64,000 nucleotides of DNA from an uncultured delta proteobacterium (GTDB lineage Bacteria; Myxococcota_A; UBA9160; SZUA-336). Where the stretch lies: assembly GCA_963704165.1 (NCBI GenBank), contig CAVPHD010000004.1, positions 512,001 through 576,000 of the forward strand, written 5' to 3'. The translations under genes and the position numbers were made by a program. Below are positions 2,834 through 61,522 of the stretch, piece by piece; the stretch's first letter is position 1; every line of letters begins with the position of its first letter. The notes beneath the pieces were generated by a model. The model was not told the origin of the DNA and did no database searches. It saw only the letters and a program-made list of their open reading frames with translations.

Positions 2834-3909
2834 GCCCGCCGGGCGCATCCGACGAGAGCGAGCGCGCTCGGCTCGAGCTTCTCGACGAGCTGCGCGCATC
2901 GGTGCGCTCGCTGCGCTTCGAGCTCGACCATCGGTTCGGCATCCGCGATGGCGGTCCGCCCGAGAGCGAAGCTGCGATCGACGACCCGGAGATCGAGGAC
3001 CCGCCGGCCGAGTCCGGTAGCGGCTTCTTCGAGGGGCTCGCCCGCCAGCTTCGCGGGCGCCTCGAGGACATCGACATCGTGAAGCTCTACGAGGCGCTGC
3101 GCGAACGCGTCTCGATCCCGGGCGCGGCGGACGTGTCCGCCGAAGTCGACGAGCTCGGGCTCGATGCGCAGTACCTGACGCGCGCGCGACGCTGGCTCGA
3201 CTGGCTCTTCGACTCGTGGTGGCGCGTGCAGGTCACGGGAATCGAGCTGATCCCGGACGCGAGCCGCGTGCTCTTCGTCGCCAACTCGTCGGGGATCCTG
3301 CCGTGGGATGGCCTGATGGTCGCGCACGCGGTCGAGCGTCTGCACCCCTCCGGCCGGCGTCCCCGTCCGCTCGTCGCGGACTGGCTCGCGACGCTGCCTT
3401 TCTCTCAATCGAGGCTGGCGCGTCTGGGCGCGGTTCGAGCCTGCACCGAGAACGCCGAGCGGCTTCTGCTCGCCGATCAATGGGTGATCGCGTTTCCGGA
3501 GGGACAGAAGGGCGCGCTCAAACCGTTTCGCGATCGCTACCGACTGCGGCGCTTCGCGCGCGGCGGCTTCGTGCCGCTCGCCGCGCGCCTGCGCGCCGCG
3601 ATCGTCCCCGTCGCCGTCGTCGGAGCCGAGGAGCTCTACCCGATCCTGTTCGAACCGCGACTGCTTCGACGGCTGTTGGGCGTTCCCGTTCCGATCACCC
3701 CCACGTTCCCACTCCTGGGTCCGCTCGGAGTCATTCCGCTTCCGAGTCACTGGCGGATCCGTTTTGGCGAGCCCATCTGGTTCGACGACGATTCGCGGGA
3801 GCGCGTCTCGGATCCCCTCTACGTGAATCGCACCCGCGAGCAGGTGCGCGGAGCCGTTCAAGCCCTGCTTGAAGAAGAGCTGCCACGTCGCCGATCCATA
3901 TTCTCCTGA
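2830..3909 (+). CDS. Lysophospholipid acyltransferase (PlsC-like) family protein; catalytic His apparently replaced
   Basis: VANSSGILPWDG, FPEG, RGGFV, IVPVAVVGAEE; GTG start overlaps the upstream stop (GTGA). Confidence 0.85.
   Translation: MSPPGASDESERARLELLDELRASVRSLRFELDHRFGIRDGGPPESEAAIDDPEIEDPPAESGSGFFEGLARQLRGRLEDIDIVKLYEALRERVSIPGAADVSAEVDELGLDAQYLTRARRWLDWLFDSWWRVQVTGIELIPDASRVLFVANSSGILPWDGLMVAHAVERLHPSGRRPRPLVADWLATLPFSQSRLARLGAVRACTENAERLLLADQWVIAFPEGQKGALKPFRDRYRLRRFARGGFVPLAARLRAAIVPVAVVGAEELYPILFEPRLLRRLLGVPVPITPTFPLLGPLGVIPLPSHWRIRFGEPIWFDDDSRERVSDPLYVNRTREQVRGAVQALLEEELPRRRSIFS
3870..3897 (+). promoter_or_regulatory. Putative sigma28-type promoter of the S8 peptidase gene
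   Basis: TGAAG-N15-GCCGATCC, 28 nt before ATG 3926. Confidence 0.4.
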
Positions 3910-3925
3910 TGCGAGATCGTTCCTG

Positions 3926-5488
3926 ATGGCATCGGCGGCCGCGGACTCCTTGCCGGACGAACGGTCGCTTCACGTCTCGCGCGGTACGGGAGCGGCGTGC
4001 GTTCTGGCGCTCATCCTCGCCGTGACGCTCGAGGCGTCCGCACAGGGCGGAGGAGAACGCATCGCGCTGAAGCTGCGCGATGGAAGCCAGGCATCGCTCG
4101 AACGCGGTCAGCTCGTCGCGCGGGGGGCCGATCTGACCGAGCTGCACCGAGTACTGGCGGAGTTCGACCTCCGTCCGGGCGCGTTGTCCCCCACCTTCGT
4201 GCGAAGTCCGGCGGCTCTGCGAGCCGAGCACGCGCTCGCCGAGCGCAGGGGCGGACGCCGGCTCGGTGAGCTCGCGCTCTTCTTCAACCTCGAAGTCGCG
4301 CCGGGAACCGACGTGGCCGCATTCGTCGCCGCGCTCCGCGCGCTCCCCGAGGTCGAGAGCGCCGACCCCTGGCCGAAGCCCGCACCACCGCCGTTCGACC
4401 TCGATCCACCCACGCCCGACTACTCCGCGCTGCAGACGTTCAAGGCGGCTGCGCCCGTCGGCATCGGCGCCGCCGGCTTCGTCGGAATCACGGGCGCGGA
4501 CGGCTACGGGACACGCTTCGTCGATGTCGAGTACGAGTGGCGCCTCGACCACGAGGATCTCGAGCTTGCCGCGAGTACGGTGGTCCCGGTTGGAACCGCG
4601 GTGAATCCGTTTCCCGACGACGGCAGTCACGGAAATGCGGTGCTCGGCCTGTTGTCCGCGCGCGCGAACGGGTACGGCGTCACCGGGCTCGTGCCGGCGT
4701 CGCAGGTCCGTGTCGCCGCCGCGCAGACGGCGGAGCACGGCTGGGACGTCGGGCGCGCGATCGAGCAGGCGATCGTGGCCTTCGGCCCGACCGTGGGCCC
4801 CGGTGACCTGATCCTGATCGAGCAGCAGATGTACGTCTGCGGTTTCGATGGCTCCGGCGGGGGCCAGACGGGCGCGGGTCCAGTCGAGGGATATCCGGCC
4901 TGGCGTGCCGCGATCGCGACCGCCACGGCGCTCGGTGTCATCGTCGTCGAGGCGGCGGGCAACGGCGGTGTCGATCTCGACGCGCCGAGCTGCAACGGCG
5001 TCTTCGATCGCGGGCTCGGAGATACCGGTGCGATCGTGGTCGGTGCGGGATCGGCTTCGTCGCGCGCGCCGCTCGCCTATGCGTCCTACGGCAGCCGCGT
5101 CGACGTTCAGGGAGTCGCGGAGGGCATCGTGACGCTCGGCGGGGGCTCGCTCTTCGGCGGCGGCGACCCGTTGCAGAAGTATCAGTCGAACTTCGGGGGC
5201 TCTTCGTCCGCCGCTGCGATCGTGGCCGGCGTCGCGCTCGCGGTGCAAGGCCTGCGACGGGCGGGCGGCCACGCGCCGCTCGACCCGTTCGCACTTCGCG
5301 ACCTGCTCGTGCAGACCGGCACGCCGCAGGCGCCCGATCCGCGTCAGATCGGGCCGCTGCCGGATCTCGGTCAGGCCTACGCCATCGGTGTACCGGCGCT
5401 GTTGATCCGGACGCTGCCCTACTGGGCGGCGCTCGCGCTGTGTGGGCTGCTGCTCGCCGCCGTCGCGATCCGGATGCGCGCGCGCTAG
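3926..5488 (+). CDS. Secreted S8 (subtilisin-like) serine peptidase with C-terminal sorting/anchor segment
   Basis: Signal-like stretch ending ASA; VDVE, SHGNAV, AAGNG, GGSSSAAAIVAG; C-terminal TM plus basic tail; start uncertain (3926 or 3950). Confidence 0.85.
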   Translation: MASAAADSLPDERSLHVSRGTGAACVLALILAVTLEASAQGGGERIALKLRDGSQASLERGQLVARGADLTELHRVLAEFDLRPGALSPTFVRSPAALRAEHALAERRGGRRLGELALFFNLEVAPGTDVAAFVAALRALPEVESADPWPKPAPPPFDLDPPTPDYSALQTFKAAAPVGIGAAGFVGITGADGYGTRFVDVEYEWRLDHEDLELAASTVVPVGTAVNPFPDDGSHGNAVLGLLSARANGYGVTGLVPASQVRVAAAQTAEHGWDVGRAIEQAIVAFGPTVGPGDLILIEQQMYVCGFDGSGGGQTGAGPVEGYPAWRAAIATATALGVIVVEAAGNGGVDLDAPSCNGVFDRGLGDTGAIVVGAGSASSRAPLAYASYGSRVDVQGVAEGIVTLGGGSLFGGGDPLQKYQSNFGGSSSAAAIVAGVALAVQGLRRAGGHAPLDPFALRDLLVQTGTPQAPDPRQIGPLPDLGQAYAIGVPALLIRTLPYWAALALCGLLLAAVAIRMRAR

Positions 5489-6036
5489 AGGGAGCGCTCG
5501 CGCGGACGATCCACGGTCGCGAGTCGGGCCTCGAAGCTCTCGAGCGCGGTCGCGAGCCGTTCGAGGTTCTTGTTCAGCGCCTCGAGGTCGCCGCGCGTCG
5601 GCAGATCGGCCACGTGCAGCACGTGCTCGACCGCGGCGTGGACCGTTCGCGTGATCTCGGACGGGTCGAACGGTGCGCCGTCGCCAGGAGTACGAATCCA
5701 GCGTCGCATGTTGTCGCGCATCTCGTTCAGGTTGGTCTCGACGTCCCCTACACCGCGCCGCACCAGGCTGTAGAGGGCGTCTCCACCGCGTTGGATCAGC
5801 TCGGTGAGAAGCGTGCCGGAGACTGCAGAGTCGCGGTCTCCGCGATTCCCCCGCTGATCATCCACCAGGATCTGCGACAGCACGATCGGCGTGATCTCCT
5901 CGCCGGTCTCGTTGTCGATCACGCAGATGTCGTGACCCTCGCGCACGAGCTCGGAGATCCCTTTCAACGTGATGTACCGGCTCGACTCCGTGTTGTAGAG
6001 CTTCCGGTTCGCGTAGCGCTTGATCAGGATCGCCAT
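5485..6036 (-). CDS. Polyhydroxyalkanoate synthesis regulator (PhaR-type DNA-binding domain) with phasin-like C-terminus
   Basis: IKRYANRKLYNTESSRYITL...IDNETGEEIT...LSQI; C-terminal LPTRGDLEALNKNLERL. Confidence 0.88.
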   Translation of the reverse strand: MAILIKRYANRKLYNTESSRYITLKGISELVREGHDICVIDNETGEEITPIVLSQILVDDQRGNRGDRDSAVSGTLLTELIQRGGDALYSLVRRGVGDVETNLNEMRDNMRRWIRTPGDGAPFDPSEITRTVHAAVEHVLHVADLPTRGDLEALNKNLERLATALESFEARLATVDRPRERSL

Positions 6037-6341
6037 CGGTCGCGAGTATCCCACCGCACCTTGGGTCGGTCAAACCCTTCGCGCTCGCGCTTCCGTCGCG
6101 TGTGGACGCTCGGCGCGATCGCATCGGAGAGCGCGGCGAAGATCTCGCGCACGCGCTCGGCGGCCGGATCGTGGGCGGCGCGCTCCGCCCAGCGCTTCTC
6201 TTCCGCGCGAAGTGCGGCGCGCACGCGCTCGAGGGAAGGCGCGCTTCCGCCGAGCACGCTGGCCCCGGAAGCGAGCGCGAGAGCGAGCTCTTGCGCGGAG
6301 CGCACGAGATGCTCGAGCGCGCGTTGACCGGGGTCAGGCAT
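6024..6341 (-). CDS. Hypothetical helical protein in the ArsA-phaR operon
   Basis: Fills the gap between the second arsA-like gene and phaR, overlapping both. Confidence 0.6.
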   Translation of the reverse strand: MPDPGQRALEHLVRSAQELALALASGASVLGGSAPSLERVRAALRAEEKRWAERAAHDPAAERVREIFAALSDAIAPSVHTRRKREREGFDRPKVRWDTRDRWRS

Positions 6342-7512
6342 CGGCCTTCGGCGCGAAGATCAGACTCCCGATGCGCGCGAGCGCCTCGAGCTCGTGAACG
6401 TCCTCGCTGAAGAGCGGCACCACGCGCACGGCATCGGCCTCGAGCGGCAGTGCCTTCTCGAGCCGTGCCCGCACCGCGAGGTCGCGACGCGCGAGCGCGG
6501 CCTGCGCCCGCGTCGACGCGACCAACGCGCGCGCGCTGCTCGCGGAGTCGAGTTCGGGCGCGGCCGCGTCGATCGCGCCCGTCAGCCACGAGATCGCGCG
6601 CTCCACTTCCTGAACGTCGTCGGCGGGAGGATCGCCGGCGCCGGGCCAGGTGTGCACGCGATTCAAGACCAGTCCGGCGAGCTGGATCCCTTCCTCTTGC
6701 AGACGCCGCCAGAAGGATTCCGCGCTCTTCGCCTGTTGGAGATCGGGCCCCGCCACCAGCACGAAGCCGCAGATCGGGTCGCGAAGCAGACCGGCGACCT
6801 CGCGCGCGCGCTCGGAGAAGCCGCCGAGCATCTCCTCGAAGGCGAGCAGGAACTCGGAGATCGACGTCAGGAACTCGAGTCCGGTGATCCGCTCGAGACC
6901 GCGCATCATCAGCTCCGACCCGGAGCGGAAGAGGCGAAAGCTGGCCCGTCCGACGACCGCGGCGGGGTGGAGGAGCACCGTCAGGAACTGGCTCTCGAGA
7001 AATCCGGCGAGCCGGCGCGGCGCGTCCAGGAAGTCGAGCGCGTGGGAGGCGGGGGGCGTGTCGAGCACGATCAGATCGTACTCCCCGTCGGCGTGGATCT
7101 GGCGCAGCTTTTCCATCGCCGAGTACTCGCGGCTCCCGCCGAGCGCGTCGGTCAGGTTTCGATAGATCGGATTCGAGTAGATCCGCGCGCGCGCGTCCGG
7201 ATCGGAGGCGAAGCGCTCGACGAGCTCGTCGAACGTGCGCTTGGTGTCGAGCATGAGTGCGGCGAGCTTGCCGTCGCCCGTCACACCCGCTTCGCGCAGT
7301 CGGTCGCGCGGAACCTCGCGGGGAACGTGGTCGAGCGCGCCGGTTCCCAGCGCGTCCGCGAGCCGTCGCGCGGGATCGATCGTCATCACGAGCACGGACT
7401 TCCCGGCGCGCGCGCCGGCGAGGCCCAGCGCTGCGGCGATGGTGGTCTTGCCGACGCCTCCGGTGCCGACGGTGACGAGAACGCGACAGTCGAGCCAGCG
7501 TTCGGGTTTCAC
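6334..7512 (-). CDS. ArsA/Get3-family ATPase, subunit lacking the signature lysine
   Basis: GTGGVGKTT, TIDPARRLA, DTPP, LDFLDAP; GTG start overlaps upstream TGA. Confidence 0.9.
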   Translation of the reverse strand: MKPERWLDCRVLVTVGTGGVGKTTIAAALGLAGARAGKSVLVMTIDPARRLADALGTGALDHVPREVPRDRLREAGVTGDGKLAALMLDTKRTFDELVERFASDPDARARIYSNPIYRNLTDALGGSREYSAMEKLRQIHADGEYDLIVLDTPPASHALDFLDAPRRLAGFLESQFLTVLLHPAAVVGRASFRLFRSGSELMMRGLERITGLEFLTSISEFLLAFEEMLGGFSERAREVAGLLRDPICGFVLVAGPDLQQAKSAESFWRRLQEEGIQLAGLVLNRVHTWPGAGDPPADDVQEVERAISWLTGAIDAAAPELDSASSARALVASTRAQAALARRDLAVRARLEKALPLEADAVRVVPLFSEDVHELEALARIGSLIFAPKADA

Positions 7513-8510
7513 TTCGAGACCTCGGCTCGCGACTGCGCGAGCGCCGCTCCGAGATGATCGGCGAGCGCGGCGACGCCGGATGGACCATCCACGCCCTGAT
7601 CGAGCCAGGGCAGAACGACCGGAGCGACGCCGAACTCGCCTTCGAGTCGGGCGAGGAACCCCGCCTGCATGCGCGTGCGAGAGAGCCGATGTCGCACGGA
7701 GGCACAGAGCGCGACGGGCTCCACGAGCGGAGACGGGGCGCTCGCGGCGTCGAGGGACGCGACGACCTCCAGCACGCGCTCGGCGTCGGGCAGCGCGAGC
7801 GGGGGCTCGACTCCGTTCGCGATCACCGGACCGAGCGCGAGCCCGAGCTCGCGAATCCGCGCGCGCAGCTCGAGCGTCTCGTTCACCGGTAGCTCCTCGA
7901 GCAGGCTGACGATCAGGACCGCCGTTCGAGCGGGGTCCGTGAGCAGCGCTTGAACCAGATCGGTGTTCCGGCGAAGCGGGCCGATCCGCACGGTGTCGAG
8001 GATCACCGTCGGGGTCGAGAGCAGGGAGAGCCCATGGCCGGTCGCGGGTGCGTCGATCACGATCAGCGGCCAGAGCGCTGATCCCTTCGAATCCTCGAGC
8101 GAGACCAGGTGCCAGAGCTTTCCCAGCGTGATCAGCTCGCGCCAGCCGGGCGCCGCCTCGAGAAAGCGTTGGAAGCCCGCGTTCCCGACGATCGCCCGCG
8201 CCAGGGCGCGCACGCGGATCTGCAGCTCCAGGTATTCGAGCAGGGCCTCCTCGGGAAGGATCCGAAGCGTGAACAGATTGGGCGCAGCCCGGACCGGATC
8301 GCGCCGCGGGTTCGCACTTGCGAGAGGCCGGTTCTCGCAGAGCAGATCCGGCAGCACCGACGTGTGGCCGAGCTCGACGACGAGCGTTTTGACGCCGGCG
8401 TCCGAGGCGAGTCGGCCGAGCGCCGCGGCGACGCTCGTCTTGCCGGTGCCACCCTTGCCGGTGACGAGCAAGAGGCGCCGCGCGAGCAGTTGCTTCGTCA
8501 GTTCCGACAT
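7509..8510 (-). CDS. ArsA/Get3-family ATPase, subunit lacking the switch-I DPA motif
   Basis: GKGGTGKTS, APGWREL, DAPATGH, EELPVNET. Confidence 0.9.
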   Translation of the reverse strand: MSELTKQLLARRLLLVTGKGGTGKTSVAAALGRLASDAGVKTLVVELGHTSVLPDLLCENRPLASANPRRDPVRAAPNLFTLRILPEEALLEYLELQIRVRALARAIVGNAGFQRFLEAAPGWRELITLGKLWHLVSLEDSKGSALWPLIVIDAPATGHGLSLLSTPTVILDTVRIGPLRRNTDLVQALLTDPARTAVLIVSLLEELPVNETLELRARIRELGLALGPVIANGVEPPLALPDAERVLEVVASLDAASAPSPLVEPVALCASVRHRLSRTRMQAGFLARLEGEFGVAPVVLPWLDQGVDGPSGVAALADHLGAALAQSRAEVSK

Positions 8511-8519
8511 CGGCGCACC

Positions 8520-8547
8520 TCAAGCGGAGCGACGCTCGCGCCGACCG
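8520..8547 (+). promoter_or_regulatory. Putative sigma28-type promoter of the zinc-ribbon protein gene
   Basis: TCAAG-N15-GCCGACCG in a 54-nt intergenic gap, 17 nt before ATG 8565. Confidence 0.55.
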
Positions 8548-8564
8548 GGGAGTGGGGCCCATGA

Positions 8565-10016
8565 ATGACCGTTGAGTGCGAGAAATGCCAGACGCGCTTC
8601 CACGTCGCCGATGCCCGCATTCCCGCCAAGGGTGCGCGCGTCCGCTGCTCGCGTTGCCACCATCGGTTCCACATCACCCTGTCTTCCGCCGCGCCCGGGC
8701 AGTCGACCGCCGCAGCCAAGGATAACGCGGCCGAGGAGATCCTCGGCGGCGAGGCCGCGCGCGAAGAAGACCAGCTCGACAATCCGGAGTTCATCTTCGA
8801 TCGGCCGGAGGGTGACCACGGAAGGACCGGTTCCGTTCGTACCGACCTCGCCGACTCGGGACGCCAACAGCCGCATCTCGCCGAGCCGCCGGAACCCGCG
8901 ACGCCGCCCGCACCTCGGGAGGAGCGCGTCGTTTCGAGCGGAGGGGTGACCGCGCAGCAGATGCTCGACGAGGGTGTTCCGGATCTACCGACGGGCCGCA
9001 TCGACGTTCTCGGCTCGCTCGGCGAGACCGACAGCCTGATCGGCAGCCCGGACGAACCGAATGTCTCGACCGCGAGCACGGAGCTCGATGACGCGTTCAC
9101 CGAGTCGAGCGAATCGCTCGCGGTCGTTCCGCCCGCTCGCCCGGCCTCCGCCGAGATCGCCGCGATCGCGGCGGAGCTCGGCGAGGACGAGGACAGCTCC
9201 TTCGCCGATTGGGATCCGCTCTCGACGCCCGCATCCACGCCGGCCGCGGGGATGGTCGAAGCGCCGGCGCCGGCGCCGACACCGGCGACGAAGACGGTTC
9301 TCGACTCGATCCAACCCAAGCCCGCAGCTCGACCCAAGCGGCGTGCGTTGGCCGAGGCCCCGACCTTCGATCCCGAAGCGGTGAGTCCCATCCGTCTGAT
9401 TCTGCGGGTCGCCGCCGTGATCGTCGGCTTGGCGCTCCTGGGTGCCGCCGGCCGCATACTCTGGCTCCAGCGCGGCGGCGATTCATCGGCGCCCGAGGTC
9501 GTGCAGGCGGCGGGCTGGATCGCGGCGGATCTCGAGACCTTCGTCGCGCGAAACGCGGACGGCGAGCGCGTGGTCGTCGTGCGGGGAAACCTGTTCCCGG
9601 AGGGCTCGGCCCCGCCTCCCCGGGTCGAGGTACGACTGCTCGGCGCAGATGGTGAGGCGCTCGTGGTCTCCCCGAGGACCTGGCTCGAGCGGATCGACGA
9701 CGCCGAGATCGCGCCTGAGCGACTCGAACTCCGACTGGCGCAGGCGGGTGGCGACATCGCCGGCATGGGCCAGATGGTCACAGGCTTCACGGCGGTGATT
9801 CCCGATCCGCCGCCGGGCATCCACCGCGTCGAGGTTTCGCTGAGAGCGCCCGAGCGAACCCCGGCCGGTACGGCCACGGCCGACGTTCCAGCGGCGCCGC
9901 CCGCCGACGAGCCCGCGGCCGCCCCAGCGACCGAGACCGCGTCGCCGAGTCCTGCGGCGTCCTCGGGCCTCCCGGAGTCGGACGCGGTCGTTCCCGCTGC
10001 ACCCGCGCCGGAGTAG
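8565..10016 (+). CDS. MJ0042-type zinc-ribbon membrane protein with DUF3426-like extracytoplasmic domain
   Basis: CEKC...CSRC N-terminus, long acidic/Pro-rich linker, one TM helix, beta-rich C-domain. Confidence 0.82.
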   Translation: MTVECEKCQTRFHVADARIPAKGARVRCSRCHHRFHITLSSAAPGQSTAAAKDNAAEEILGGEAAREEDQLDNPEFIFDRPEGDHGRTGSVRTDLADSGRQQPHLAEPPEPATPPAPREERVVSSGGVTAQQMLDEGVPDLPTGRIDVLGSLGETDSLIGSPDEPNVSTASTELDDAFTESSESLAVVPPARPASAEIAAIAAELGEDEDSSFADWDPLSTPASTPAAGMVEAPAPAPTPATKTVLDSIQPKPAARPKRRALAEAPTFDPEAVSPIRLILRVAAVIVGLALLGAAGRILWLQRGGDSSAPEVVQAAGWIAADLETFVARNADGERVVVVRGNLFPEGSAPPPRVEVRLLGADGEALVVSPRTWLERIDDAEIAPERLELRLAQAGGDIAGMGQMVTGFTAVIPDPPPGIHRVEVSLRAPERTPAGTATADVPAAPPADEPAAAPATETASPSPAASSGLPESDAVVPAAPAPE

Positions 10017-10024
10017 CCTCGAGG

Positions 10025-10213: not shown

Positions 10214-10275
10214 GACCGGAGGTTCGGCGACGGCCGAGTTGAAGTCAACCGGTCGACCCGGAACACTGCACGCAC

Positions 10276-11628: not shown

Positions 11629-11683
11629 GATCGCGCGCCGGGGTTTCCTCGCCGGGCCGGACGTCCTCCGGCGCGGCTTCGCA

Positions 11684-24451: not shown

Positions 24452-25120
24452 ATGCTCTACGCCATCGGCGATATTCACGGCATGCGCGACGAGCTCGCCA
24501 AGCTGATCGAGCTCCTGCCGCTCGAGCCGGGCGACCGGCTGATCTTCATCGGCGATTACGTCGATCGCGGGCCGGACCCGAAGGGCGTCGTCGACTATCT
24601 GATCGAACTCGCACGGCAACGCGAGTGCATCTTCCTGATGGGCAACCACGAGTCGATGTTCCTGTCGTTCATCGGCTGGCAGGGGCCGAACTACTTCGGG
24701 AAAGAGGCCTTCCTGCACAACGGGGGAGAGACGACGCTGGCGAGCTACGGCTACTTCGAGTTCGACGGCAGCTTCGAGCTTCCTCCCGACCATGAACGCT
24801 TCTACCGCGACCTGCGGATCTGGCACCTCGAGGGCGAGTACGCGTTCGTCCACGCGGGACTCTCGAAGTCGGCGCTCGGGCTCTCCGACCCGAAGTACGC
24901 GCTCTCGCGAGAGCGGGTCAAGGATCTGCTCTGGCAGCGCGAGACGGCGGACCTTCCGCACAGCCTCGGCGTGACGACCGTCTACGGCCACACGCCGCTT
25001 CCCGACTTTGGGGTAAGATGGAACGTGCCGTACTCGATCGGGATCGACACGGGCGCGGTCTACGGCGGACCGCTCTCCGCGATCCGGCTGCCCGACGAGA
25101 CGATCTTCCAGACCTCCTGA
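24452..25120 (+). CDS. Metallophosphoesterase (PPP-type Ser/Thr protein phosphatase family)
   Basis: GDIHG, GDYVDRG, GNHE, HAG, GHTP, IDTG. Confidence 0.92.
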
Positions 25121-49034: not shown

Positions 49035-49036
49035 CG

Positions 49037-50300: not shown

Positions 50301-51578
50301 ATGGATCCTCTTCTCGGTGCCCTGATCATCGTCGCGTGTCTTCTGTCGTCGGCCTTCTTCTCCGCCAGCGAGACGGCGCTTCTGCGGATGCGTGCGCACG
50401 AGCTCGAGAAGGACATCCGAGAGGCGCGCGGACCCGCCGCGTTCGCGATCCGTGACCTGCTCGGCTCGACCTCGCGGCTGCTCGTGACGATCCTGCTTGC
50501 GAACTCGCTCGTGAACATCCTCGGTCCGAGCGTCGCGACCGCGCTGGCCGTCGAATGGCTGGGCGCTCAGCCCGGGGTCCTGGCCTCGACGGCCGTCATG
50601 ACGGCGCTGATCCTGGTCTTCGGCGAGGTTCTGCCCAAGGCACTCGCGGCCTCCCACCCGCGCCGCGTCTCCCACGCGGTGGCACTGCCCTTGTACCTGC
50701 TCCACAAGATGCTCTGGCCGGCGCACCTGGTTTTCGCGCGGATCATCGAGCCGTTCGTTCGGCGAGTGGCGGGAACCGCCGAGGAGGGGCCGCCGATGAC
50801 CACGGTCGAGGACGTGCTCCGGCTCGCGCGTGCCGCGTCGGCTTCCCAATCCGATGCGCACCCCGACGCACACCCGCTCGAGATCATCGGCTCCGCCGCG
50901 GGTGCCGCGAACATGACCGTGATGGAGATCATGGTGCCGCGCGCCGAAATCGTCGCATTTCCGAACGACATCTCCCCGTCGGACCTGCTCGAGAAGGTGA
51001 TGGAGGAGCGCTACACGCGCGTCCTCATCTACGAGGGCTCGATCGACAAGACGCTCGGGATCGTCCACCTGAAGGATCTGATCAAGCTGCTCTCGTCGGA
51101 AGGCGGGGATCTGGCGTCGATCGTGAAGCCGATCCTCCGCGTACCCGGGCGCAAGCCGATCCTGCGGTTGCTCGCCGACATGCAGCGGAACTTCGTGCAC
51201 CTCGCCGTGGTGAAGGACGAGTTCGGCGTGACCCTCGGTCTGGTCACGCAGGAGGACATCCTCGAGGAGATCGTCGGCGAGATCCGCGACGAGTTCGACC
51301 GCGAGGAGCTGCTCACCATCCGAGAGCTTCCCGACGGAGCCTGCGAGGCGCTCGGCCGGGTCAAGGTCGTCGACTTCAACCGCGAGACGGGTTGGGAGGT
51401 TCCGGCCGAGCGTGGCGACACGCTCGCCGGCCTGGTCTTCCACGAGCTCGGCCGCGCGCCGCGCGAGGGTGACGTCGTGTGCGTGCCCGGCTACGAGTTC
51501 CGCATCGCCGACATTTCGGGCACCCGCATCACGCAGGTGGTCGTGCGACGGAACCCGGACGAGGCCACCGAGCGCTAG
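50301..51578 (+). CDS. CNNM/CorC (HlyC) family protein: DUF21 + CBS pair + CorC domain
   Basis: FFSASETA, FGEVLPK, IMVPR, DEFG...EDILEEIVGEIRDE. Confidence 0.93.
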   Translation: MDPLLGALIIVACLLSSAFFSASETALLRMRAHELEKDIREARGPAAFAIRDLLGSTSRLLVTILLANSLVNILGPSVATALAVEWLGAQPGVLASTAVMTALILVFGEVLPKALAASHPRRVSHAVALPLYLLHKMLWPAHLVFARIIEPFVRRVAGTAEEGPPMTTVEDVLRLARAASASQSDAHPDAHPLEIIGSAAGAANMTVMEIMVPRAEIVAFPNDISPSDLLEKVMEERYTRVLIYEGSIDKTLGIVHLKDLIKLLSSEGGDLASIVKPILRVPGRKPILRLLADMQRNFVHLAVVKDEFGVTLGLVTQEDILEEIVGEIRDEFDREELLTIRELPDGACEALGRVKVVDFNRETGWEVPAERGDTLAGLVFHELGRAPREGDVVCVPGYEFRIADISGTRITQVVVRRNPDEATER

Positions 51579-51814
51579 ACGTCCTCGTCCTCGTCGATCG
51601 GCTTCAGCAGGATCGGCGAGGGCGCGTACTCGGGTCCGTCCTTCCAGCCCGGGATCCGCTCGGCCTCGGCCAGCCACGACCGCGCGATCGATTCCTCGAC
51701 GACGACGCTCGAGTTGTCGAACGACTCGAGCAGGCTTTCCCAGAGCGCGCGGCCGCCGCTCGCCCACCAGAGCCGCGCGGGATTCTCGAAGTCGATGGCC
51801 AGCTTCACGAGCAC
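51575..51814 (-). CDS. Small hypothetical protein
   Basis: 79-aa ORF with natural composition, preceded by TACCCT-N7-GTG. Confidence 0.7.
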   Translation of the reverse strand: MLVKLAIDFENPARLWWASGGRALWESLLESFDNSSVVVEESIARSWLAEAERIPGWKDGPEYAPSPILLKPIDEDEDV

Positions 51815-51854
51815 GGGGCGCAGGGTAGCGGATCGCTCGTTCCGCGCGCCCCGC

Positions 51855-52613
51855 TCAGTTCATCATCGCGGCGCGCATGCGCGAGCGCAGCCGCGAGACC
51901 GCCTTCGAGTGGATCTGGCAGACGCGGGACTCGGTGATCCCGAGGATCTGCCCGATCTCCTTCAGGTTCAGGTCCTCGTAGTAGTAGAGCGAGATCACCA
52001 GGCGCTCCTTCTCGGGCAGCCCGGCGATGCCGTTCGCGAGCGCCTGGGTCAGCTCGCGCTGCTTCAGCTGAGCGAACGGGTCCTCGGCGTTCACGTCCTC
52101 GAGGTTTCCGCTCGGCAGCGGCTGATCGTTGTCGCTCTGTCCGCGCAGGTCGTCGAGATTCACCATCGACACGCCGCGTGTCTGGTTCACCAAGGTGTGG
52201 AAGTCGTCGATCGGGAGGCCGAGGGTTCCCGCGACCTCGTCGTGGGTGGCGGGCCGGCCGAGTCTCTGCTCGACGGAGTTCGTCGCCTGCTCGAGCTGGC
52301 GGCTCTTCTGGCGCACCGAGCGCGGAACCCAGTCGAGCGAGCGAAGCTGGTCGAGGATCGCGCCACGTATGCGGAACTCCGCATAGGTCTTGAACTTGCA
52401 GTCCTTGGTCGGGTCGTACTTGTCGACCGCGTCCATCAGGCCGATCACGCCGGTGTTGTGCAGATCCTCGAGGTCCACGTGGGAGGGCAGCCGCACCGCG
52501 ATCCGGCTCACGATGTAACTGATCAACGAGGTGTGTTCGATCACGATCCGTTCTTTCAGTTCAGGCGGGACCCGCCCATGTCGTGCCCAAGCCTTCCGGA
52601 TCAGAGTCTCCAT
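51855..52613 (-). CDS. fliA: FliA/WhiG family RNA polymerase sigma factor (sigma28)
   Basis: FKTYAEFRIRGAILDQLRSLDWVPRSVR, LYYYEDLNLKEIG, ESRVCQIH; SD-like GGAGAGGG before ATG 52613. Confidence 0.93.
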   Translation of the reverse strand: METLIRKAWARHGRVPPELKERIVIEHTSLISYIVSRIAVRLPSHVDLEDLHNTGVIGLMDAVDKYDPTKDCKFKTYAEFRIRGAILDQLRSLDWVPRSVRQKSRQLEQATNSVEQRLGRPATHDEVAGTLGLPIDDFHTLVNQTRGVSMVNLDDLRGQSDNDQPLPSGNLEDVNAEDPFAQLKQRELTQALANGIAGLPEKERLVISLYYYEDLNLKEIGQILGITESRVCQIHSKAVSRLRSRMRAAMMN

Positions 52614-52694
52614 CCGTTCCCTCTCCTCTACGAGCTTCCGCGAGTTGCTTCGGACCTGCGCGCGCTCGGATGTGCAAGGCGGGTGCCCGGCGCT

Positions 52695-52722
52695 GAATCG
52701 GCTCCGAATGGCTCGCCCTTGA
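52695..52722 (-). promoter_or_regulatory. Putative sigma28 promoter of fliA (autoregulation)
   Basis: TCAAG-N15-GCCGATTC. Confidence 0.65.
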
Positions 52723-52895
52723 GGACCGGCAAGTACCGCGCAGCACACCGGAAGATCCCGAGAATGCACGGGAATTCCGGAGCGTCGGGGTCGGGTACGC
52801 GGCTCGGTGAAGCCCCCCCGGAGCGGGCCCGGCGAGGCCCCGCGCCGTCGGATCCTTGACGCTCGAGCGACCGGGTCGCGTTGGCTTTCCGACGC

Positions 52896-52922
52896 TCAAT
52901 CTCGGCTGCGAAAAGCCGAATT
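52896..52922 (+). promoter_or_regulatory. Putative sigma28 promoter of the PilZ gene
   Basis: TCAAT-N14-GCCGAATT, 7 nt before GTG 52930. Confidence 0.55.
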
Positions 52923-52929
52923 ACGCTGC

Positions 52930-53307
52930 GTGGTCTACGAATCCGACTCTCTTCGACCGCTGCCGACGCGACGGGTCGCGACGCGCTACGTCGTCCGGAT
53001 TGGAGTGATTCTCCACGTCGGGGAGCGGGCGATCGAAGCCGCGATGGTGGACATCTCCGCCAGCGGTGCGCTCGTCGAGTGTGCGCCGCTCGGGATCGCG
53101 CCCGGTGCGAGCATCATGATCGAAATCGAGACCTTCAAGGTCGACCCGCCCATCCGCATGCTCGCGAAGCACGTGCGCGACACCGTCACGGGCTGCGCGC
53201 TGCGGTTCGCCGACGTCGATCCTTTCCTGCGCGTCTTCGTGAAGCTGGTGCACTCGAGTGAGGAATCCGAGGAGGACCCGCTCGAGAAGCTGCTGGCGGA
53301 GTCCTGA
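52930..53307 (+). CDS. Stand-alone PilZ domain protein
   Basis: RVATR (RxxxR) and DISASG (DxSxxG) c-di-GMP motifs. Confidence 0.85.
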   Translation: MVYESDSLRPLPTRRVATRYVVRIGVILHVGERAIEAAMVDISASGALVECAPLGIAPGASIMIEIETFKVDPPIRMLAKHVRDTVTGCALRFADVDPFLRVFVKLVHSSEESEEDPLEKLLAES

Positions 53308-53333
53308 CGCCCGGATTCGCGTAGGATCGCCGT

Positions 53334-54083
53334 GTGGACCTCGGACTCCGCGGCAGGACGGCGATCGTCACGGGCGGCGCCTCGGGCATCGGCCTCGAGA
53401 CGTCGCGCGTGTTGGCGCGCGAGGGCGTGCGGATCGTGATCGCGGATCTCGACCCCGCGCGCATCGCGAGCGCGCGGTCGGAGCTGGAGAAGATCGGCGT
53501 CGAGACGGCGGGCGTGGAGACCGACGTCTGCCGCTACGCGGACTGCGAGCGACTGCTCGGTTCGACGATCGACCGCTTCGGCGACGTCGAGATCCTGGTG
53601 GCGAGCGCCGGAATCAACCGCGAGGACTTCTTCCTGAAGCAGCGGCCCGAGGACTGGCGCGCGCTCCTCGACGTGAATGTGATGGGCGTCCTCCACGTGA
53701 ACCACGTCGTCGGCGCACACATGGTCGAGCGCCGAGCCGGAGCGATCGTGAATCTGGGATCCGAGGCGGGCAAGGTCGGAGAGAAACGCATGGTCGCCTA
53801 CTCGGCGACGAAGGGTGCGGTGATCGCGTTCACGAAGGCCTTCGCCACCGAAGTCGGCCGCGCGAACGTGCGGGTGAACGCGGTCTGCCCCGGCGTGACC
53901 CGAACGCCGATGACGGCGAGCATGAGCGACGAGATCCGCGAGCGGGCGGCACGGCTCTACCCGCTCGGCCGGCTCGGCGAGCCCGCCGACATCGCGTCGA
54001 TGATCGTCTTCCTGGCCAGCGACCAGGCGAGCTGGGTGACGGGGCAGGCCTTCAGCGTCTCGGGCGGGTTCGGCCGCTCCTGA
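53334..54083 (+). CDS. SDR family NAD(P)-dependent oxidoreductase
   Basis: TGGASGIG, YSATK, VNAVCPG. Confidence 0.93.
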   Translation: MDLGLRGRTAIVTGGASGIGLETSRVLAREGVRIVIADLDPARIASARSELEKIGVETAGVETDVCRYADCERLLGSTIDRFGDVEILVASAGINREDFFLKQRPEDWRALLDVNVMGVLHVNHVVGAHMVERRAGAIVNLGSEAGKVGEKRMVAYSATKGAVIAFTKAFATEVGRANVRVNAVCPGVTRTPMTASMSDEIRERAARLYPLGRLGEPADIASMIVFLASDQASWVTGQAFSVSGGFGRS

Positions 54084-54147
54084 GGGCGCAGATCCGGCGC
54101 TCCTGTCCACGAGAGGACGCGGCCCTCGCGCGGTCGAGATCTTCCGC

Positions 54148-54175
54148 TGAACCTCCTCACGCGCTCCGCCGATAC
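54148..54175 (+). promoter_or_regulatory. Putative sigma28-type promoter of the 54196 gene
   Basis: TGAAC-N15-GCCGATAC, 20 nt before ATG. Confidence 0.5.
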
Positions 54176-54195
54176 CAGAGCTACCGAAGCTCACC

Positions 54196-54960
54196 ATGGC
54201 GGAACCAAGCACGGCATTTCCGAGCACGCTTCTGCGACAGCGCTTCGAGCGCGCTCGCAGCCTGCCGATCGCGGCCCAGGTGCGCGAGTGCGTGGACTAC
54301 CTGCAGAACCCCGAGGTTCTGATCGAGGAGTTCATCGACGCCTATACCGCGGTCGAGAGCTGTTGCGATCCCGCGGACCAACGCTTCTCGGTGTGCACGC
54401 CCGCCGACGCCTCGGCCAAGGAGCGCAAGGCGTCCCTCGACCAGCTCTTCGGGAAGGGGATGGTCTCGGTCTTCGACCTGGTGCCCTACGAGTTTCTCTG
54501 CGTCGCGCGCGACGTCTCTTCAGTTTCCCGGAGCCTGGATCTCAAGCGGCCTCGCGCGGACGGGCTCGACTACGTGGGTCGGATCGTCGGTGAAGAACCG
54601 CTCGCGGTGATCGGCGTCGCGGAGTACGGCGAGGAGACCTCGCCGTACGCGCTCTTCCTGCGCTTGATCACGTGCCTGTCGGAGCTCGCGCCGGACGCCC
54701 AGCTGCGCGCGGCCGATGAAGCCATCTTCAAAGGCGGGCTCGGCGCCGAGCCCAAACTCGACCTGCACCTGCTGCTTCGGGAGTCGGAGGACGAGGTCGC
54801 GAGCGGCACGCTGCGGCAGCTGACGCACGATCTCGCCGAGGTCTTCCATGCCGGCGTCGCCGAGGAATGGCAGTTCCCCGACGTGCTTCGGAACATCGTC
54901 TGTCTCGTGCCCGCGACGCCGGGATCCGAGGAGAACCTCTTCGTCGATTGGTGCGTCTGA
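54196..54960 (+). CDS. Hypothetical protein
   Basis: 254-aa ORF with natural composition; no family recognised with confidence. Confidence 0.75.
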   Translation: MAEPSTAFPSTLLRQRFERARSLPIAAQVRECVDYLQNPEVLIEEFIDAYTAVESCCDPADQRFSVCTPADASAKERKASLDQLFGKGMVSVFDLVPYEFLCVARDVSSVSRSLDLKRPRADGLDYVGRIVGEEPLAVIGVAEYGEETSPYALFLRLITCLSELAPDAQLRAADEAIFKGGLGAEPKLDLHLLLRESEDEVASGTLRQLTHDLAEVFHAGVAEEWQFPDVLRNIVCLVPATPGSEENLFVDWCV

Positions 54961-54970
54961 CGCCCTGATC

Positions 54971-55423
54971 TCAGGCGGCCGGAAGCAGCTCGCTCGCGAT
55001 TCGCCTCGCGAGATTCCCGTCGATGTCGGCCTTGTGCGCCTTCATGACCGCACCCATCACGCGCCCGAGGTCCTTGGCACTTTGCGCGCCGGATTCCGCG
55101 ATCGCGGCCTGGACCCAGGCGCGCGTCGTCGCCTCGTCGGCGAGCTTGGGCAGGAAGGTCAGAATCACCTCGAGCTCCGCCTTCTCGGCCGCGGCCTGCT
55201 CCGCTCGGCCCGCCGTCTCGAACGCCTCGATGCTCTCGTGGCGCTGCTTCTCGAGGCGGCGCAAGATCGGCAGGCACTCTTCGTCCGACACGGTCTCCGA
55301 GGCATCTTCCTTCATGCGCACGAGAAACGCCGCCCGAATGCTTCGAAGCGCCTGAAGCTCGAGCTTGCGCTGACCGCGCATCGCGTCTTTCATCTGTGCA
55401 TTCACCTGATCGAAGATCGACAT
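54971..55423 (-). CDS. GatB/YqeY domain-containing protein
   Basis: MKDAMR, KQRHESIEAF, FLPK, DLGRVMG, DG. Confidence 0.92.
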   Translation of the reverse strand: MSIFDQVNAQMKDAMRGQRKLELQALRSIRAAFLVRMKEDASETVSDEECLPILRRLEKQRHESIEAFETAGRAEQAAAEKAELEVILTFLPKLADEATTRAWVQAAIAESGAQSAKDLGRVMGAVMKAHKADIDGNLARRIASELLPAA

Positions 55424-55463
55424 CGGTTCTCCCGTCACTCGCTGCACCGAGGAGTCTGCCACA

Positions 55464-56627
55464 GTGAATTGGATCCGAGCAGGGGCGCTGTGTCTCGTCG
55501 TCATCGGTTGTGCAACAGCGCCCGCGCCATCGCTCGGTCCGGCGGTGTTTCGCGCGCCCGAGTCGGCCGAGGCGCCCGAGCGCTATTCGGCGTGGTTCGC
55601 CGACGAGCGCGACGGCGTCGTCTACTTCGGGCTCTCCGATTTCTGGACTTCGTTCTGGGCGACCGGGGATCCGATGGCCGAGCTTCGCGAGCCCGGCGCA
55701 CATCGGATCGGGCGCTTCGACCTCGCGAGCGAGTCGTTCCTGAAGCCGCTCGTCGCGCGCGAGGCGGGGCCGGACGTGCGCGCATCGGTCTGGGACGTGC
55801 TCGCGCACCCGAACGGCTGGGTCTACTACACGACGTTCTACGAAGAGATGGGTCGCGTGAATCCGGCGACGGGCGCGGTCGAACGCTTCTCGAGCCTCGG
55901 CCGCGGATTGAACGAGCTCGCGCTCGCGGCCGATGGGCGGATCTTCGCGACGCGCTACGGCTCCGGAGTCGAAGACCCCCGAGCTCGATCCGACGGCGCG
56001 CTCGTCGTGCTGTCCCAAGAAGGTGAGAGGCTTCGCGAGATCCGCCTGCACGCGCGCGATGGTGCCGTGACCGCGGCAAAGAGCGTCGCGTGCGATCCGA
56101 GCACCGGGCACGTCTTCGTCAACGCCGACGTGATCCTCGACGACGGGGGTGTGGAGTACGCCCGCTTCGAGCTCGACGCGGAGCTGTCGCTCGTGCACGG
56201 AGCGGTGGGCGATCCCGAGCTGGTCTTCGTCGCGTTCGCCCCCGACGGCCGCGGGGTTCTGATCGAGGACGAAGCCGGGCAGGTCCGCCTCTCGATTCTC
56301 GAGTCGGGGCGCGAGCGCGCCACGGTCGACCTCGGCCCGCGGCTGCCGCACGACTTCGCCCAGGATGTCCACTTCGCGCCCGACGGCACGGCCGCGGTCG
56401 CGTTCTGGTCCGGCCGGATCGAGCTCGTGCGCGAGCACGAGGGCCGTTTCGAGCACGCGCGGCTCGACCTCGACAAGCCCGCCGCGTGCGAGCCGCCCGC
56501 CGGCCGCTCGCTCGTGTACAGCGCGTTCGTCCGTTCGAGTTCCGTGTACGCGACACTGTACTGTGGCGAGACGATTCTGCGCGGGGACCTGCCGTCGGAC
56601 TGGAGGCCGGTCCTGCCCGCGCCCTAG
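55464..56627 (+). CDS. Hypothetical lipoprotein, probable beta-propeller
   Basis: Lipobox VIGC; repeated xAPDG/HPNG blade-like turns. Confidence 0.75.
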   Translation: MNWIRAGALCLVVIGCATAPAPSLGPAVFRAPESAEAPERYSAWFADERDGVVYFGLSDFWTSFWATGDPMAELREPGAHRIGRFDLASESFLKPLVAREAGPDVRASVWDVLAHPNGWVYYTTFYEEMGRVNPATGAVERFSSLGRGLNELALAADGRIFATRYGSGVEDPRARSDGALVVLSQEGERLREIRLHARDGAVTAAKSVACDPSTGHVFVNADVILDDGGVEYARFELDAELSLVHGAVGDPELVFVAFAPDGRGVLIEDEAGQVRLSILESGRERATVDLGPRLPHDFAQDVHFAPDGTAAVAFWSGRIELVREHEGRFEHARLDLDKPAACEPPAGRSLVYSAFVRSSSVYATLYCGETILRGDLPSDWRPVLPAP

Positions 56628-57505: not shown

Positions 57506-57560
57506 GCCGGATGCTTAGCAGAATGGACCGGCTGCTACACTGCGGGCCGGAGGTCCGGAG

Positions 57561-58342: not shown

Positions 58343-58347
58343 GCGCG

Positions 58348-59361: not shown

Positions 59362-59395
59362 CGCGTTCCTCCGTGCGGTCGAACGGGGAACGCTA

Positions 59396-61483
59396 TCACG
59401 TCTCCGCGAGCAGTACGGCGCTCTGATAGGCGTCCAGCGACGCGTACTCGCGAAACGGCAGACCGTGAGCGCCGGCCGGGTCGGGCAGGGGGACGGCTCC
59501 GCTTCGCGCGAGCAGTTCGGCGAGCAACGCGCGCAGCGCGTCGAGGGCGTTCTCCGGTCCGGTCACGAGGTGCCGCGCGCGGAACGCGTCGCTGCGCATT
59601 CGCATCACGTCGATTGCGCCGTCGGGCGCATCCGCCCAGTTCATGGCCAGATCGATCACGACCACTGGATTCGGGCCGAGGCCCGAGATCAGTCCGACGG
59701 CGACCGCCTGCACCTGCGTCCATTCGATCAGGCTCGGCGCTCCTCCCTCGAGCCGAACGCGCACGCCCGTGACGTCGAGCGCCACCGGCAGGACGGGAGT
59801 GGCCTTGATTCGAGCCGAGCTCGGAGGAATCCCGAGGGGTGCAGCGAAGATCGCGGTCGCGGACTCGGCTTCGGGCACGAGCTCGTCGGACGGAGCGGGT
59901 ACCGTGACGTCCGGCACGTCGGGTTCGACACCGAGTTGCGTAGGTTCGATCTCGAAGAGCTCGTCCCGTGGGGGCGTGGGCTCGGGGACAGGCGTTGCGG
60001 AGTCGCCCTCGAGCGAGAGAACGAGCTGCTCGAGTCTCTCGCGTCGCTCTTCGACGAGCTCACCGCTCGCGAGCGCGAGCCGCGCAGCGCGAAGCGCGGT
60101 CGGCGGGTCGAGCTCGGCGCCGAGCTCCGCCGCACGGAAGGCCTGTCCGACGGTGAGGCCCGGATTCGCCGCGTCGAGGGCGGCGCGAAGCGCCCCGATC
60201 GCCGCGTCGCGATGCGCTCCCACGACGAGCTCCGGCACGATTCGCAGCAGCGCGGTCGCGCCGACCGGGACGTTCTGCGCGCTGCGCACGAGTTCTTCCC
60301 AGGTGCCCGCGGCGCTCGCGAGATCTCCCCGGCGCGCGTACACCTCGACCAAGCGACCCGCCGCGCGCGCGCCGTCCGCCTGACTTCCGGCCGCGACGTG
60401 CGCCTGCCAGGACGCCTGCAGCGCATCGGCGTCGTCCGGGCGATCGCGCAGGACGGATTCCGCGAGCTCGATCGCCTCCGCGTGCAGGCTCTGCTCGCGG
60501 GCCGTGATGGCGCGCCGGATGCGCGGATCGAGTCCCGTGCGCGCGCGTGTCACGAGCGAACGTGCCTCGACGCGACCTTCGAGCTTCGAACGCTGCACGG
60601 CCCACGCAAACGCTCCGCCCCACGCGAGGCCCGCGACGTTCGCGGTCCACGAGTTCCCCGCGAAGACCTCCGCGTCGAGAAAGAGCAGCGCGAAGAGGAT
60701 CTGCACCAGCCCTGCGATGGGAGCGAGAATCCAGCCGCGAGTCTCGATCGATGCGGCGCTCGCACGAGTCGTTCGCAGCGCGATGCCACGAACGCGCAAG
60801 CGGCTGACTCCGAACCGGCCGAGAAACGCACCGACCAGGCCGGCGGCGATTCCCGACGCGCCAATCAGCGGGGCGCTCGAGCCAGGGACCGCGAGCACGT
60901 GGGTCAGCGCAGAGACGAGCCCGCTCGAAAAGCCCAGCCCGACGAAGAGCGCGACGCCGAACCGCTGCTCGAGCGCGGGACCGACGAGCGCGACGGGCAG
61001 AAGCGCGAGCACGAGGTGGCTCCATCCCGCGTGCAGGAATGCGTGGGTGAACCAGGCGAGCGGGCGCTTCGCGGTCGCGACCAGTCCGAATCGGCGGAAC
61101 GCGTGCGCCGGGCCCGGCTTCTCGTCGGATCCGAGCAGCGCCAGCCGCGTGAGATGGGCGAGCGCGTTCTGCTCCTCGGCGACGACCTCGGCGTCGATCG
61201 GCCGAATCGTGCCGAGCCTCCGCGATTTCGCGAGGAAGGCTTCGAGGTCCATGCGCTCCGCGGCGTCCGCAGCGGCCTCGAGGATCTTCGCATCCGGCTC
61301 GAGGTAGGGATGCTCGAGCCAGTAGTCCGACGCCTGCTCGAGCTCGACCTGCGCTCCCTCGCCGGTCAGGAACTGCCGAAAGCGCGGCACGAGAAAGCAG
61401 GCGAGACAGACCGCGATGAGCGCGAGTGTCACCCAGGGGACGCGCTCGGCTCGGTCGTTCTCGTCGGCGATATGAACGATCAT
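59396..61483 (-). CDS. Rhomboid-family membrane protein with long TPR-like C-terminal extension, possibly inactive
   Basis: PWVT, FLHAGWSH, LEQRFG, GASG; TM6 reads SWTANVAG. Confidence 0.8.
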   Translation of the reverse strand: MIVHIADENDRAERVPWVTLALIAVCLACFLVPRFRQFLTGEGAQVELEQASDYWLEHPYLEPDAKILEAAADAAERMDLEAFLAKSRRLGTIRPIDAEVVAEEQNALAHLTRLALLGSDEKPGPAHAFRRFGLVATAKRPLAWFTHAFLHAGWSHLVLALLPVALVGPALEQRFGVALFVGLGFSSGLVSALTHVLAVPGSSAPLIGASGIAAGLVGAFLGRFGVSRLRVRGIALRTTRASAASIETRGWILAPIAGLVQILFALLFLDAEVFAGNSWTANVAGLAWGGAFAWAVQRSKLEGRVEARSLVTRARTGLDPRIRRAITAREQSLHAEAIELAESVLRDRPDDADALQASWQAHVAAGSQADGARAAGRLVEVYARRGDLASAAGTWEELVRSAQNVPVGATALLRIVPELVVGAHRDAAIGALRAALDAANPGLTVGQAFRAAELGAELDPPTALRAARLALASGELVEERRERLEQLVLSLEGDSATPVPEPTPPRDELFEIEPTQLGVEPDVPDVTVPAPSDELVPEAESATAIFAAPLGIPPSSARIKATPVLPVALDVTGVRVRLEGGAPSLIEWTQVQAVAVGLISGLGPNPVVVIDLAMNWADAPDGAIDVMRMRSDAFRARHLVTGPENALDALRALLAELLARSGAVPLPDPAGAHGLPFREYASLDAYQSAVLLAET

Positions 61484-61494
61484 CGCGATCGCCC

Positions 61495-61522
61495 GTATCG
61501 TCCGGAGATTGCTGCGCCCTTA
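61495..61522 (-). promoter_or_regulatory. Possible sigma28-type promoter of the rhomboid-like gene
   Basis: TAAGG-N15-GACGATAC, 11 nt before ATG 61483. Confidence 0.35.

Follow-up and report, generated by a model that had tools for sequence, protein, structure and literature searches.

The stretch analysed here, called the window throughout (64 000 nt; G000:C4:512001-576000), carries fliA, a gene for a sigma28 factor of the FliA/WhiG family, together with putative promoters of the type that such a factor would read; we describe this factor, its motif and the genes that the motif precedes across the genome, type IVa pilus genes foremost. The source genome (G000; 3.87 Mb, 84% complete) belongs to an uncultured Myxococcota class (UBA9160, hereafter the class), and 11 genomes of the same genus are its congeners. 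Its 3649 genes were called with a purpose-built hexamer model, so start positions are approximate. The features at the fliA locus are:

51855..52613, minus strand: fliA, sigma28 (FliA/WhiG family), 252 amino acids (aa); TIGR02479 at 274.1 bits (cut-off 189.6), Pfam sigma70 regions 2, 3 and 4
52695..52722, minus strand: predicted sigma28 promoter before fliA itself, TCAAG-N15-GCCGATTC, 21.2 bits
52674..52687, minus strand: predicted sigma54 (-24/-12) promoter before fliA, GGCAC-N5-TTGC, just downstream of the sigma28 site
51575..51814, minus strand: open reading frame (ORF) of 79 aa directly after fliA

The TIGR02479 score, and the presence of regions 2, 3 and 4 in a protein of ∼250 residues (start codon set by sequence alignment), place the product in the sigma28 family; its nearest solved relatives are 6pfv, 6pfj, 9wsf and 6pmi. 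It is the sole match above the TIGR02479 cut-off in G000, i.e. a single-copy gene, and other sigma70-family genes are also present in this genome. In a quick tree (103 distinct rows left once duplicates and short matches had been removed, support from the Shimodaira–Hasegawa-like approximate likelihood ratio test only, midpoint root) the window sigma falls into a long-branch paralog group with the second copies of two-copy relatives, from which we infer that the genus lost the ancestral fliA copy and that the paralog took over. Derivation of the window sigma from a flagellar cluster was rejected, as neither paralog has flagellar neighbours in 16 mapped loci. The 79-aa ORF matches nothing in Pfam or the Atlas; an ORF of 79–81 aa follows the fliA paralog in all five loci inspected (L014, L037, L039, L040 and L041), and it may be co-transcribed with fliA.

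The sigma28 site before fliA predicts autoregulation. It recurs 101–105 nt upstream, with a diverged spacer, in ten other loci (94–99% protein identity; some genomes were fetched twice), is missing in one (L036) and was not seen at the corresponding place in other genera; among 109 fliA loci scanned, 15 have a match at 11 bits, with wrong-spacer counts of 0–11. Of 102 distinct loci, 24 show a sigma54-type pattern before fliA (antisense 1, inside the gene 0), and all 24 belong to the family-f1 part of the tree or are near-identical to it. The RpoN-box motif occurs once in G000, on contig C9.

The original prediction held that one bipartite motif recurs, correctly oriented, before genes of the window. 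Genome-wide, the motif matrix (order-4 Markov background) converged in G000 on (c)T(C/A)AAG-N15-(G/T/A)CCGAT; a first matrix with a single-base background was dropped, as it slid onto the frequent word TCGA and lost specificity. Judged by the FliA box of Bdellovibrio and the Escherichia coli sigma28 consensus, this is a motif of the sigma28 promoter type, T(A/C)AAG-N15-GCCGAT(AA), and it is enriched upstream of genes. In the 100 nt that precede starts, the exact pattern T[ACG]AAG-Nn-G[CA]CGA[TA] has 22 occurrences at n=15, versus 0–7 at each of 23 other spacers (6–29). At 13 bits, training sites included, the matrix has 96 upstream matches, against a wrong-spacer mean of 15.5. When it was trained on six contigs and scored on the other six, 82 of 3643 upstream windows matched in sense at 13 bits, compared with 28 in antisense, four of 3152 coding windows, a wrong-spacer mean of 15.5 and 41 after a crude block shuffle, the least favourable of the held-out controls; at 15 bits the numbers are 56 (sense), 14 (antisense), 2 (coding), 7.5 (wrong spacer) and 14.7 (block shuffle). 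Recurrence before genes, with positional and strand enrichment over coding, antisense and shuffled controls, is thus borne out: the excess is genuine and specific to spacer, strand and position. It amounts to ∼80 sites above background at 13 bits in G000. Out of 101 sites, 82 are mainly intergenic, and the median distance to the start is 43 nt.

Five sites had been proposed outside the neighbourhood of fliA, and all five strings lie where and on the strand they were placed, 28, 17, 9, 26 and 11 nt before the called starts (in the order of their coordinates). Together with two further sites near fliA and a gene between them, they are:

3870..3897, plus strand: motif-like string before the S8 peptidase gene 3926-5488, unsupported as a promoter, 8.1 bits
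8520..8547, plus strand: predicted sigma28 promoter before the zinc-ribbon protein gene 8565-10016, 14.5 bits
24416..24442, plus strand: predicted sigma28 promoter (N14) before the metallophosphatase (PPP phosphatase) gene 24452-25120, 11.5 bits
28245..28272, minus strand: predicted sigma28 promoter before the MltD-like SLT/LysM gene 26275-28218, 12.2 bits
61495..61522, minus strand: predicted sigma28 promoter before the rhomboid-domain gene 59396-61483, 17.3 bits
52896..52922, plus strand: predicted N14 sigma28 promoter upstream of the PilZ gene 52930-53307, 14.7 bits (14.8 bits in L037)
52930..53307, plus strand: stand-alone PilZ-domain protein, PF07238 at 32.4 bits
54148..54175, plus strand: weaker predicted sigma28 promoter before the 254-aa protein gene 54196-54960, 12.6 bits (13.4 in L037)

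We compared the five sites with five congeners (G001 and G008–G011); these are kin, so their counts are not independent tests. Four sites keep both boxes while their spacers drift, which bears out the conservation expected in related genomes. The zinc-ribbon site reads TCAAG-N15-NNCGA in all five congeners (13.1–15.5 bits), and the phosphatase site, the last three bases of which are the stop codon of the rlmN-like ORF upstream, reads NCAAG-N14-NCCGATAA in all five (11.3–16.0 bits). The MltD site scores 15.7–23.0 bits in five out of five, above its score in the window, and the rhomboid site 16.6–18.4 bits in three (9.0 and 10.5 bits in the remaining two). The S8 string is different: it sits within the 3′ coding end of the acyltransferase ORF 2830-3909, and in the two congeners (out of five) that have the S8 gene most of the spacer is conserved too, the string scoring 7.1 and 8.3 bits. 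Because of its low score, its coding-end position and the conserved spacer we do not count it; it is probably a coding coincidence. Of the eight sites once counted in 64 kb, the three near fliA were located (we assume them to be those before fliA, the PilZ gene and the 254-aa gene) and the S8 site drops out. The 254-aa protein (54196-54960, plus strand) matches nothing in Pfam, NCBIfam or the Atlas; its gene stays close to the window-type fliA paralog in L037 and L039.

The targets that are strongest and best conserved lie mostly outside the window and are genes for the type IVa pilus, polarity-like proteins, cyclic di-GMP (c-di-GMP) and serine/threonine (Ser/Thr) signalling. The top-scoring site in G000 (25.3 bits) precedes pilB (TIGR02538 above cut-off). 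Further pilus sites stand before pilR, before genes after pilA, before the gene for an immunoglobulin-domain protein, before a small helix-turn-helix gene leading into pilM-N-O-P-Q and before an SgmX-like tetratricopeptide repeat (TPR) gene (weak NF052243 match); two more PilT-like ATPases and one MshEN ATPase are additional targets. The intact cluster of one congener (G010) has the order pilB-pilT-pilC-pilS-pilR-pilA, and its pilA has a sigma54-type site upstream and no sigma28 site; a similar GG-N10-GC string precedes pilA in G000 (seen by eye, missed by the regular expression). pilC, pilS and pilR, intact in G010, are fragmented in the G000 gene calls (L144:4700-9000, i.e. G000:C11:84700-89000), as is one mreB (G000:C4:287579-288615), probably by assembly indels.

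The pilB site extends across the class. A pilB gene was detected in 37 of the 41 genomes of the class, and in all 30 loci examined (seven families, G000 included) a site of 18–27 bits precedes it, mostly of the form GTAAAG-N15-[GAT]CCGATAA (antisense 0, wrong spacers 0–2). Outside the class one out of 29 pilB loci has it (loci from 30 hand-picked genomes, 28 of them picked for having a sigma28 match). Likewise TMAAG-N16-CCGAT, compared with an N19 control, occurs 993 versus 318 times in 25 class genomes and 436 versus 60 times in the 11 congeners; in 106 other genomes the counts are 2013 versus 1905. The idea that this wiring is phylum-wide and could explain SigF of Myxococcus xanthus therefore failed, both at pilB and genome-wide. 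One class genome (G021, 89% complete) has no sigma28, no FlgM-like gene and no pilB match, and there the pattern occurs twice versus ten times for the control; nadC, the usual neighbour of the sigma locus, is preceded by unrelated genes and lies inside a contig. We read this as a natural loss of sigma28, FlgM-like gene, pilB and motif excess together.

Searches for flagellin and FlhA were negative in G000 and in all 11 congeners (0/11), and relatives' flagellin and neighbouring flagellar proteins have no tblastn match in G000; the two components of a flagellar FliA–FlgM checkpoint that were sought, flagellin and the FlhA export gate, are thus not detected in the genus. Across the class they co-occur in the same 15 of 41 genomes; a sigma28 gene was detected in 39 of these 41, among them 25 of the 26 that lack flagellar genes. 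Five flagellated genomes supplied 12 flagellin loci for inspection. The four of family f1 (two flagellated family members) have sigma28-type sites, and among the eight from families f5 and f6 seven (L268, L269, L270, L273, L274, L278 and L282) are of the sigma54 type without a sigma28 site and one has a 14.8-bit site. The f5 and f6 genomes with sigma54-type flagellin promoters do carry sigma28.

An FlgM-like gene of 79 aa (G000 C11:119790-120029, i.e. L145:8060-8299; PF04316, 29 bits versus a cut-off of 25) lies elsewhere in G000, at the ancestral locus, which is retained without fliA: activators, the FlgM-like gene, a PP2C gene, a RomR-like gene and nadC. In nine other genera the FlgM-like gene follows a co-oriented fliA at a distance of 117–174 nt; in G020 the two genes are convergent. 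A sigma28 site precedes it in all 21 scored loci, with wrong spacers at 0–2 (22 loci were candidates; one was lost at the tblastn step). With one query, the gene was found in 21 of 24 family relatives and in none of 16 genomes of other families; it is kept in 15 of 17 flagellum-less family members. In a Pfam search it is the only FlgM of the two flagellated family members, and no FlgM was found by that search in two genomes of other families. The proteins (20 aligned members) have 67–101 aa, only their C-terminal part matches FlgM, and the match of the G000 protein to solved FlgM structures is weak (E 0.049 and 0.51).

We scanned the targets against Pfam (97 of the 101 genes with a site of at least 13 bits, the other four being window genes scanned separately) and against NCBIfam (25 of these 97, 62 neighbours and five window genes). 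PilZ genes stand out: eight of 14 PilZ loci have a site of at least 13 bits, versus 104 of 3641 genes. Three GGDEF and two EAL proteins are also c-di-GMP targets, and five Ser/Thr kinases, three FHA proteins and one PP2C represent Ser/Thr signalling. The targets also include one MreB paralog, one of three bactofilins, DivIVA, both MglA-like proteins and a RomR-like receiver protein (RomR architecture as described in PMC6428892). DUF4388, DUF4124, Lon and GspM genes are further targets. Envelope genes had been thought to make up most of the regulon. They are a real minority, including MltD/LysM, rhomboid and DUF4124 proteins, and membrane or exported proteins show no enrichment: a crude hydrophobicity screen on our own start calls predicts a signal-like or membrane segment for 35 of the 101 targets, compared with 1000 of the 3548 other genes (28%; Fisher p = 0.18). 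What stands of the original prediction is a dispersed, non-flagellar, sigma28-like regulon of ∼80 sites and, of its 'envelope-remodelling or lifestyle programme', the large lifestyle programme; the envelope is not its main content.

Since the motif chiefly precedes pilus, polarity and signalling genes in a bacterium without detected flagella, sigma28 likely drives pilus-based surface motility and not swimming. We consider it likely, from sequence evidence, that the motif is the promoter of the window sigma28 and that this factor switches on a piliated, surface-motile state in a lineage in which no flagellar genes were detected. Sigma54 with an activator would start fliA transcription, which sigma28 would then amplify at its own gene. 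Sigma28 would transcribe pilB-pilT-pilC-pilS, pilR, the accessory genes after pilA, pilM-N-O-P-Q and the SgmX-like TPR protein; the genes for the RomR-like and MglA-like proteins, the MreB paralog, bactofilin and DivIVA; and those for PilZ, GGDEF and EAL proteins, Ser/Thr kinases, FHA, PP2C and some envelope enzymes. The major pilin gene pilA, with its sigma54-type site and no sigma28 site, would be left to PilR and sigma54. Sigma28 would also transcribe the 79-residue FlgM-like protein, which would bind and dampen it in a negative loop. Without a flagellar export gate, this brake would have to be cleared in some other way, most likely by proteolysis; the predicted targets include Lon. A complete set of Pup-proteasome genes (proteasome ATPase, Dop, Pup, beta and alpha subunits and a PafA-like ligase; L184:9699-16073, i.e. 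G000:C5:102650-109024) stands just upstream of the MreB paralog with a sigma28 site, and is a candidate for this route.

Other accounts of the sites differ in how much of this they can accommodate. That they are chance matches in GC-rich DNA has practically no probability: it holds for some single sites, such as that at 3870, and the exact pattern has a background of 3–21 per spacer in G000, but for the motif class it is refuted by the spacer-, strand- and position-specific excess in held-out data and by conserved boxes with diverged spacers. It is very unlikely that another sigma factor or regulator reads the boxes, with the sigma28 gene a bystander or relic. G000 does have further sigma70-family genes, the window copy is a long-branch paralog, and sigma28 occurs in 81 of the 131 genomes of the phylum, but outside the class the exact pattern shows no enrichment; on the other hand, the consensus is of the sigma28 type, it precedes the FlgM-like gene in every scored locus and the flagellins of the two flagellated family members tested, and its excess is gone together with the sigma in G021.

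The reading of the original prediction, a sigma28 that mainly runs envelope remodelling, we think quite unlikely: conserved sites before the MltD/LysM and rhomboid genes and others before LysM, AMIN-like, porin, LolA-like, AmpG-like, GlmU and DUF4124 genes speak for it, but the lack of enrichment of membrane or exported proteins does not, nor does the position of the best-scoring, class-wide site before pilB. There is a small but real probability that, as in Bdellovibrio, sigma28 acts as master switch for a predatory or host-seeking stage of life, with pili for contact and with hydrolases and kinases as payload. The motif and the size of the large, mostly non-flagellar regulon resemble those of Bdellovibrio (92 of 140 attack-phase promoters; PMC3627812), and patatin, an aspartyl protease, SLT/LysM and rhomboid proteins and large TPR-kinase proteins are among the targets. 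However, the 101 targets include few hydrolases and show no enrichment of exported proteins; in Bdellovibrio, FliA is described as not regulating pilA, the FliA-controlled pilins being type IVb (PMC5430801); and no life-cycle data on the lineage were found.

Several observations weigh against the switch to piliated surface motility that we favour. About 15 of the 96 upstream matches at 13 bits are expected to be false, and several sites precede metabolic or housekeeping genes (aroA, alaS, rpsQ, an oxidoreductase), ∼ten in all, a number consistent with that rate. In the class, seven of 47 genomes are below a twofold excess of the pattern, six of which have sigma28, and G016 (75% complete) shows an excess (24 versus 4) with no sigma28 found; the loss case is one incomplete genome. 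The FlgM-like protein is below the TIGR03824 cut-off (21.3 versus 40.75 bits), and the match is weak in 20 out of 20 members. The RomR-like protein is named from its architecture only, and G000 has only two MglA-like GTPases, both with sigma28 sites, and no third, canonical mglA by protein comparison in this 84% complete assembly. As 25 of the 97 scanned targets have no Pfam match, the centre of the regulon could exceed motility, and the pili may serve adhesion or prey contact instead of movement.

A tentative and rather doubtful extension of the motility reading covers the whole class: sigma28 may serve the type IVa pilus and polarity machinery as its dedicated sigma factor, some families having passed flagellin to sigma54. 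The sigma54–sigma28–FlgM circuit would then be intact in the flagellum-less genus, the mini-FlgM would be a true anti-sigma factor whose release needs no flagellar export (regulated proteolysis or a pilus-machine signal would bring it about), and the flagellar checkpoint would be reused for pili.

Some neighbouring features are given for completeness. A 13.1-bit N16 site lies at 1774-1802 (minus strand) before a histone-deacetylase-family gene (725-1726). Between the S8 peptidase and zinc-ribbon genes (5485-8510, minus strand) there are a PhaR-like regulator gene and two genes for ArsA-type ATPases, unrelated to the motif. A 124-aa gene after aroB (L143:7711-8085 region) has no family match in the NCBIfam scan. 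No RNA record is listed for 50500-56500 of the window, which is neutral as evidence.

Within the literature searched, this is the first regulatory map found for the class, an uncultured and widespread one of the Myxococcota. It predicts which uncharacterised genes of the class work with the pilus. A flagellar sigma factor is kept in genomes without flagellar genes (25/26) and tied to pilB (30/30 loci), and the FlgM-like gene poses a testable question: how the FlgM brake is released once the export gate is gone. The search, mostly without subscription papers and supplements, found no paper reporting that sigma28 controls type IVa pilus operons in Myxococcota, and none on an FlgM kept without flagella; the Bdellovibrio promoter table, in a supplement outside this search, might list pilus assembly genes. 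In M. xanthus the pil order is pilB-pilT-pilC-pilS-pilR-pilA, with a sigma54-type site before pilA; gene order and sigma54-type site are the same here, and the sigma28 site before pilB sets the class apart from other Myxococcota classes. SigF of M. xanthus is said to regulate S-motility genes (PMC9548883), and no mention of FliA or SigF was found in the available part of a review of this species (PMC12288465).

Bdellovibrio bacteriovorus offers the closest promoter: its FliA box, TTAAG-N16-CCGATA, is near-identical, and its attack-phase regulon of ∼90 promoters is of similar size and has many non-flagellar targets (PMC3627812). Bdellovibrio, however, retains FliA-controlled flagella, and FliA is described as not regulating its pilA (PMC3627812 and PMC5430801); in the present lineage no flagellar genes were detected, and no targets are better conserved than the type IVa assembly operons. 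With the canonical FliA/SigD–FlgM flagellar checkpoint (described in PMC12871210) the system shares the sigma family, the promoter type, a candidate FlgM-like gene with a predicted sigma28 site and a predicted sigma54 site before fliA; it differs in the short FlgM-like protein with its C-terminal match only and in the genus having no detectable flagellin or FlhA, so that FlgM is not removable by flagellar export. The WhiG factors of Rubrobacter and Actinoplanes, which target type IV pilus biosynthesis (in Rubrobacter also c-di-GMP enzymes; PMC12871210), are like the window sigma in tying a sigma28-family factor to type IV pili. Rubrobacter WhiG is held by RsiG and c-di-GMP via Lys57/Gly61/Arg62 (PMC12871210); these residues align with Ser32/Ser36/Arg37 of the window sigma, and on this ground control of that kind was rejected. 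In addition to these residues, the FlgM-like partner gene and the phylum are different, and the sigma28–pilus wiring would be an independent parallel in Myxococcota to WhiG–pilus control in Actinomycetota.

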